From Escherichia coli (lineage in GTDB: Bacteria; Pseudomonadota; Gammaproteobacteria; Enterobacterales; Enterobacteriaceae), in assembly GCF_003334335.1 (NCBI RefSeq), contig NZ_QOWQ01000060.1: a stretch of 14,550 nucleotides of DNA. The stretch is one strand, 5' to 3'. Under the pieces are notes generated by a model. It searched no databases, was not told the origin of the DNA, and saw only the letters and a list, made by a program, of their open reading frames with translations. Positions 9,007-9,050 of the stretch are shown piece after piece (position 1 is the first letter of the stretch; each line of letters opens with the position of its first letter). The position numbers and the translations under genes are program-made.

Positions 9007-9015
9007 TGTGTTAAC

Positions 9016-9035
9016 GCCCGGCTTGCCGGGCTTTT
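9016..9035 (+). terminator. Intra-operon hairpin with T-run between fecA and fecB (attenuator or partial terminator)
   Basis: GCCCGG (9016-9021) pairs with CCGGGC (9026-9031) around a 4-nt loop and is followed by TTTT (9032-9035), 10 nt after the fecA stop. Confidence 0.6.
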
Positions 9036-9050
9036 AGCTGGAATGTGATT

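Follow-up and report, generated by a model that had tools for sequence, protein, structure and literature searches.

A probable leaky terminator and mRNA 3'-end cap between fecA and fecB of the Escherichia coli ferric-citrate operon

The spacer between fecA and fecB in the ferric-citrate operon of Escherichia coli carries a compact G/C hairpin that runs directly into a stretch of U. It is probable (about 0.7) that this element acts as a leaky intrinsic terminator inside fecABCDE, and that its hairpin also protects the 3' end of the fecA mRNA. The reading draws on the motif itself, its position, the conservation of its structure, a mapped RNA 3' end and the unequal transcript abundance already published. 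The element is already known: an identical hairpin, at the identical position and with the same proposed role, was reported in 1995 downstream of fecA in E. coli K-12 (Enz, Braun, Crosa 1995, Gene 163:13, as summarised in PMC9249621), and the strain analysed here has the same hairpin, its fec genes being flanked by different IS remnants. A reading made earlier from the letters alone, the sequence-only reading, had proposed that the hairpin could be a partial terminator that sets the receptor gene above the ABC transporter genes. Because this role is in the literature, that interpretation is the published one, and it is backed by the review's account of Enz et al. (1995) together with the Term-seq 3' end. 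What is added here is the placement of that published end 8 nt past the stem, the finding that the hairpin is conserved and the U-tract is lineage-dependent, and the comparative observation that REP-like or ERIC-like elements fill the same spacer in other lineages.

The window, by which the whole analysed stretch of 14,550 nt is meant (assembly GCF_003334335.1, contig NZ_QOWQ01000060.1), holds the E. coli fecIR-fecABCDE ferric-citrate locus. Annotation and the list of open reading frames place fecI at 5124-5645, fecR at 5642-6595, fecC at 9950-10948, fecD at 10945-11901 and fecE at 11902-12669. The gene for the TonB-dependent ferric dicitrate receptor, fecA, occupies 6682-9006 on the plus strand according to the same list and a 100% match, and ends with the TGA at 9004-9006. 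The spacer of 44 nt, also read on the plus strand, covers 9007-9050 and is the whole range that the sequence-only reading had considered. It is followed on the same strand by fecB, encoding the periplasmic binding protein, at 9051-9953. The ATG at 9051 is the fecB start in the RefSeq annotation and in the K-12 protein, and the GTG at 9045 given by the list of open reading frames lies in frame, two codons upstream. A 701-nt piece around the hairpin matches annotated E. coli chromosomes at 100%, by which the gene identities were confirmed, and was found in 2750 of 5426 complete E. coli genomes.

Remnants of insertion sequences flank the fec genes (window positions 1-4900 and 13200-14550), comprising an IS66 transposase, IS3 and IS5 fragments and IS1F upstream; the downstream flank carries a frameshifted IS3 transposase. 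The fec segment is also present, at 98.4% identity, on more than 1000 plasmids of Klebsiella, Enterobacter and E. coli. The IS flanks and the plasmid copies are compatible with a fec locus that is a mobile island.

After the fecA stop the spacer reads tgtgttaac GCCCGG CTTG CCGGGC TTTT agctggaatgtgatt up to the ATG of fecB. The terminator hairpin spans 9016-9031 on the plus strand, with the 5' arm GCCCGG at 9016-9021, the loop CUUG at 9022-9025 and the 3' arm CCGGGC at 9026-9031. The stem is a perfect 6 bp, all G/C, its first base stands 10 nt past the last base of the fecA stop (9 nt between), and TTTT at 9032-9035 abuts the 3' arm, so the description given by the sequence-only reading (6-bp GC stem, 4-nt loop, TTTT, 10 nt past the stop) agrees with the sequence in every detail. 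In intrinsic terminators the stem runs straight into about 7-9 nt that are rich in U. Here the U-tract region UUUUAGCU (9032-9039, plus strand) has four contiguous proximal U and then an interrupted tail, giving 5 U in 8 nt, which clears the minimum of the scan but is short and interrupted. In the minimum-free-energy (MFE) structures the stem is predicted to extend over 9010-9038 (plus strand), GUUAA at 9010-9014 pairing with UUAGC at 9034-9038; with such an extension, the tail at the 3' end of the terminated RNA would double back onto the A-rich bases upstream of it.

A consensus scan of the window ranked this hairpin first among the terminator-like sites, and it was the sole one with six G-C pairs out of six. 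Counting all terminator-like matches, the window has 21, which does not clearly exceed the 15.2 +/- 4.3 found in shuffles. A strict motif was therefore defined as a perfect all-G/C stem of at least 6 bp, a loop of 3-8 nt and TTTT within 1 nt; it occurs once in the window, against 0.0075 per dinucleotide-shuffled window (both strands, 400 shuffles). In folding, the hairpin alone reached -11.2 kcal/mol and the spacer -14.7 kcal/mol, with a shuffle z of about -1.8 to -2.0 for the latter, a value at which folding energy by itself is weak evidence. The case for the hairpin rests on the count of the strict motif, its place in the spacer and its conservation. Searches against Rfam gave no match at gathering thresholds in the whole window and, around the spacer with E up to 10, chance-level matches only (E 0.6-6.4); absence from Rfam is normal for terminators. 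With its 16 nt, against an imperfect palindrome of about 35 nt, the E. coli hairpin falls outside the REP/BIME class, and it has no longer stretch of sequence in common with the REP-like palindromes in the spacers of Enterobacter, Kluyvera and Citrobacter.

Transcripts of the operon have been described before. In the summary of Enz et al. [quoted passage not shown] (1995), that the hairpin downregulates transcription of fecBCDE, and it also describes a 6-kb transcript that is 'trimmed to a more stable 2.5-kb fecA mRNA'. In view of this second statement, the difference between fecA and fecBCDE may be partly post-transcriptional, by protection of the 3' end, and not true termination.

The 3' end of the fecA RNA has been mapped by Term-seq. 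Adams et al. (2021, PMC7815308, supplementary file 1) list a 'primary' fecA 3' end at MG1655 4514320(-) for LB at OD 0.4, and this end is listed for that condition only, being absent from the other two. Each sequence in their table comprises 61 nt, of which the 51st is the 3' end, a convention that was verified on the sgrS terminator. Since fecA ends at 4514353 in NC_000913.3, the Term-seq end lies 33 nt past the stop, at window position 9039. The mapped RNA terminus ...CCGGGCUUUUAGCU is consequently 8 nt past the stem, which ends at 9031, and coincides with the last base of UUUUAGCU. An RNA 3' end about 7-9 nt past the stem is usual for intrinsic termination. A transcript that begins in the fecA promoter region (6596-6681) and stops at 9039 would measure about 2.4 kb, in agreement with the 2.5-kb band. 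As an intrinsic terminator, the element presents a G/C stem-loop with an in vivo 3' end 8 nt past the stem in published data; as an intercistronic stabiliser, it presents a stem-loop no more than 8 nt away from the 3' end mapped for the commoner upstream segment. The two activities are compatible with each other, and to Term-seq, termination and exonuclease trimming back to a stable hairpin look alike. The one backing for Rho-independent release of the fecA RNA at the predicted terminator, an indirect one, is that fecA and fecB are missing from the table of Rho termination regions (Adams et al., 2021, supplementary file 2). The supplements of SMRT-Cappable-seq do not mention fecA or fecB, and the literature searched on fecA, which covered terminators, Term-seq, RIL-seq and the stability of the mRNA, added nothing further on the hairpin.

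Taken as a leaky terminator with a protective hairpin, the element would work as follows. FecI would start RNA polymerase at the fecA promoter, fecA would be transcribed, and the nascent RNA would fold into the 6-bp G/C hairpin, followed by UUUU. Most polymerases would terminate at about 9039, some 8 nt beyond the stem, yielding a fecA mRNA of about 2.4-2.5 kb, and a minority would continue into fecBCDE, probably because the U-tract UUUUAGCU is short and interrupted; a tract of this kind predicts incomplete termination. We infer that the mapped end arises from termination rather than from trimming. The hairpin would then cap the fecA mRNA at its 3' end and should protect the message against 3'-to-5' exonucleases, which the predicted stem extension, by folding back nearly the whole 3' tail, should hinder as well. 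By termination and 3' cap together, the fecA message would be made more often and would last longer than the fecBCDE part, and the outcome would be that one promoter supplies more outer-membrane receptor than ABC-transporter components.

The conservation of the hairpin was followed with a FecB probe, which retrieved 33 loci from other Enterobacterales; 30 fecA-fecB spacers were extracted from them, L006, L017 and L020 being without a usable fecA end. A strong G/C-rich hairpin was found by the scan shortly 3' of the fecA stop in 28 of these 30 spacers. The two misses, L007 and L028, belong with L008 to the loci in which the automatic call of the fecB start was wrong, and both spacers have GC-rich palindromes there too. 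The sequence of the stem varies by lineage. E. coli and Pseudenterobacter have GCCCGG-N4-CCGGGC with the tail TTTT, Photorhabdus GCCGGGC-N4-GCCCGGC with the tail TTTGCTATTT, Pectobacterium brasiliense GCTGGGC-N4-GCCCAGC with the tail TTGACTAA (3 T in 8), and Erwinia piriflorinigrans GCGGGCTGCC-TAT-GGCGGCCCGC with the tail TTTGCTATTTTTT; in Serratia symbiotica a hairpin of yet another sequence precedes a T-rich tail. T-rich tails are therefore present in E. coli, Pseudenterobacter, Photorhabdus, Erwinia and Serratia symbiotica, and the hairpin stands without a T-run in Kluyvera, several Citrobacter, Enterobacter cloacae, Klebsiella indica and Pectobacterium. Because the T-run is missing in the latter lineages, the feature conserved across the order is the hairpin and not the complete terminator, a pattern with which termination and stabilisation of the 3' end are both compatible.

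Base pairing was counted in ten spacers of Photorhabdus, Pectobacterium, Erwinia and Serratia, the E. coli and Pseudenterobacter rows being left out, so that the stem of E. coli itself lies outside the covariation statistic. A MAFFT alignment that included E. coli had set its 5' arm against the Photorhabdus 3' arm through the common GCCCGGCTT, and it was excluded from the counting. In the ten-spacer alignment, 98.7% of the cells form standard pairs and three pairs have changed on both sides; in controls with the partner slid by 1-3 columns, pairing was only 29-57%. Since G-U pairs correspond to A-C mismatches on the opposite strand, the structure belongs to the RNA of the fec sense strand. The MFE z-scores were negative in 13 of 13 representative lineages (-0.9 to -5.1), modest values of which none is proof singly. 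Within the species, K-12 MG1655 and 2710 of 2762 E. coli records show no difference over the 60 nt surrounding the hairpin, and hairpin and TTTT are unchanged in the fec copy of 98.4% identity on Klebsiella plasmids. Identity within the species carries no weight, as E. coli records agree at 99% or more over the locus as a whole.

Several of the related spacers hold further repeats. Long REP/BIME-like palindromes lie 3' of fecA in L002, L003, L004, L005, L009, L011, L012 and L034 (positions about 1426-1500) and in L037 (1706-1782). The taxa concerned are Enterobacter, Kluyvera, Citrobacter, Klebsiella sp., Silvania and the fecA copy of a Klebsiella virulence plasmid; most of the palindromes are without a T-run, and GCCGGGTAAGCGCAACGCCACCCGGC may serve as an example. 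We take these palindromes to be REP-like from their likeness to the consensus, not from copy number. In Citrobacter sp. MGH106 (L010, 1276-1500) the fecA-fecB spacer exceeds 200 nt and contains GGAGCTTACACAAGTAAGTGACTGGGGTGAG, close to the core of the ERIC/IRU repeat, a motif that the table of Adams et al. also shows downstream of aceF, at a 3' end classed there as 'orphan'. In Xenorhabdus koppenhoeferi (L014, 1430-1495), three direct repeats of about 16 nt, resembling TGTGTATYGAAAAC, lie between the post-fecA hairpin and fecB. The hypervirulence plasmid of K. pneumoniae (L037, 1783-1900) carries a fec copy of 76.7% identity with a REP-like spacer after fecA, in which apparently only the first ~100 nt of fecB are present; similarity to the query stops within fecB and no fecB is annotated.

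The mapped 3' end could also have come about entirely after transcription, although this is considered rather unlikely. Read-through would then be efficient, endonucleases would cut the 6-kb fecABCDE mRNA, 3'-to-5' exonucleases would break down its fecBCDE part and stall at the hairpin, and the hairpin would merely stabilise the upstream fecA segment, as the REP hairpins of malE-malF do. Exonucleases stall a few nucleotides 3' of stable stems, which is also compatible with a 3' end at +8. The comparison among genera points the same way, since Kluyvera, Citrobacter, E. cloacae, Pectobacterium and the copy on the Klebsiella virulence plasmid have a hairpin or a REP-like palindrome free of a T-run at the equivalent place, so that the hairpin seems to be selected independently of the U-tract. 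The E. coli element, however, has the full geometry of a terminator (G/C stem, abutting UUUU, 3' end 8 nt on), and a T-rich tail recurs in five lineages with unrelated stems, where it would be superfluous for a pure exonuclease block. The summary given by the review (PMC9249621) speaks for both sides: its wording of a 6-kb transcript trimmed to the stabler 2.5-kb fecA mRNA fits processing, yet it also says that the hairpin downregulates transcription.

It is very unlikely that the hairpin masks the ribosome-binding site of fecB and so controls its translation. The GGAA at 9040-9043 is weakly similar to a Shine-Dalgarno sequence and begins just past the mapped fecA 3' end; the predicted extension of the stem to 9038 adjoins it, and the fold of a 71-nt segment places a weak second hairpin over the fecB start. 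But the core stem leaves 8 nt free up to these Shine-Dalgarno-like bases and 19 nt up to the ATG, the second hairpin is itself weak, and the z of the 71-nt fold is only -1.7. Moreover, the distance from the hairpin to the ATG ranges from 4 to 83 nt in other genera, a spread that does not suit a fixed placement relative to the ribosome-binding site of fecB. Likewise very unlikely is a palindrome with no role in RNA, be it a product of chance, a site at which a protein binds the DNA or the remnant of a repetitive element. A near-palindrome of 16 bp could in principle bind a dimeric protein, and REP-like and ERIC-like insertions do occur in the spacer of related loci; the E. coli hairpin, however, is too short and is without the internal sequence of the REP-like elements in other genera. 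Chance is opposed by the expectation of 0.0075 per window. Pairing is kept while the stem sequence varies across genera, including G-U pairs that are valid only in the sense-strand RNA, and an RNA 3' end maps to the hairpin in Term-seq.

Further 3' ends have been listed within the operon. A second Term-seq end lies 56 nt into fecC, at MG1655 4513353(-), which is window position 10006 (Adams et al., 2021, PMC7815308), with a Rho score of 1.09 ('No') and an intrinsic-terminator score of 6.45 (values above 3 being predictive). The fold of the region 9970-10014 shows an 8-bp stem with an inner 4-bp stem, GGUGCUGC...GCAGCACU (9970-10002), followed by UAUUAUUAUUUU. Silvania, Pseudenterobacter, Klebsiella sp., Xenorhabdus and E. 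cloacae preserve this stem with other bases; the fecC of Photorhabdus, Pectobacterium and Erwinia does not. The fecC-internal hairpin resembles an intrinsic terminator within a coding sequence and may constitute a second step-down that sets fecB above fecCDE. As the fecA stop is only 9 nt before the stem of the spacer hairpin, a terminating ribosome could hinder its formation and so couple read-through into fecB to the translation of fecA. A ladder of two translation-sensitive steps, with FecA > FecB > FecCDE from one promoter, is nonetheless regarded as improbable, as is the alternative that the fecA 3' fragment serves as an sRNA derived from the 3'UTR, for which the searchable literature offered no support. 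Downstream, the 270 nt 3' of the fecE stop (12670-12940) contain no convincing intrinsic terminator, the scan giving a weak match only, at 12867-12880, and the 3' ends of fecD and fecE are absent from the Term-seq list of Adams et al. (2021, PMC7815308).

Two ends fall within the regulator gene fecI, their window coordinates having been converted from MG1655 positions. The one at about 5135 (MG1655 4518224) is 11 nt from the start codon and was obtained in LB 0.4 with a Rho score of 0.40 ('No'). A separate one at about 5211 (MG1655 4518148) belongs, by sheet order, apparently to the M63 condition. These ends may be processing sites or premature 3' ends.

As a leaky terminator, the fecA-fecB element has counterparts among intra-operon attenuators, such as the rpsU/dnaG terminator in rpsU-dnaG-rpoD and the rplL/rpoB attenuator. 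Like these, it places a G/C hairpin and a U-tract between the genes of an operon, with partial read-through and higher expression of the upstream gene; we know of no factor that modulates read-through at the fecA-fecB hairpin. The REP elements between malE and malF, reportedly described by Newbury and others in 1987 as intercistronic stem-loops that stabilise mRNA, offer the other comparison. The fec hairpin resembles them as a stable structure at the 3' end of the commoner upstream segment of a polycistronic mRNA; unlike them, it is in E. coli a minimal stem-loop of 16 nt with an abutting U-tract and the geometry of a terminator. Its relatives in Kluyvera, Citrobacter and Enterobacter have REP-like palindromes at the equivalent position, as in malE-malF.

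FecA is both an outer-membrane transporter and the surface sensor of a signalling cascade, and the element between fecA and fecB would explain why far more of this receptor than of the inner-membrane transport proteins is obtained from one FecI-dependent promoter. The ferric-citrate operon in this way provides a textbook-style example of differential expression within one operon.
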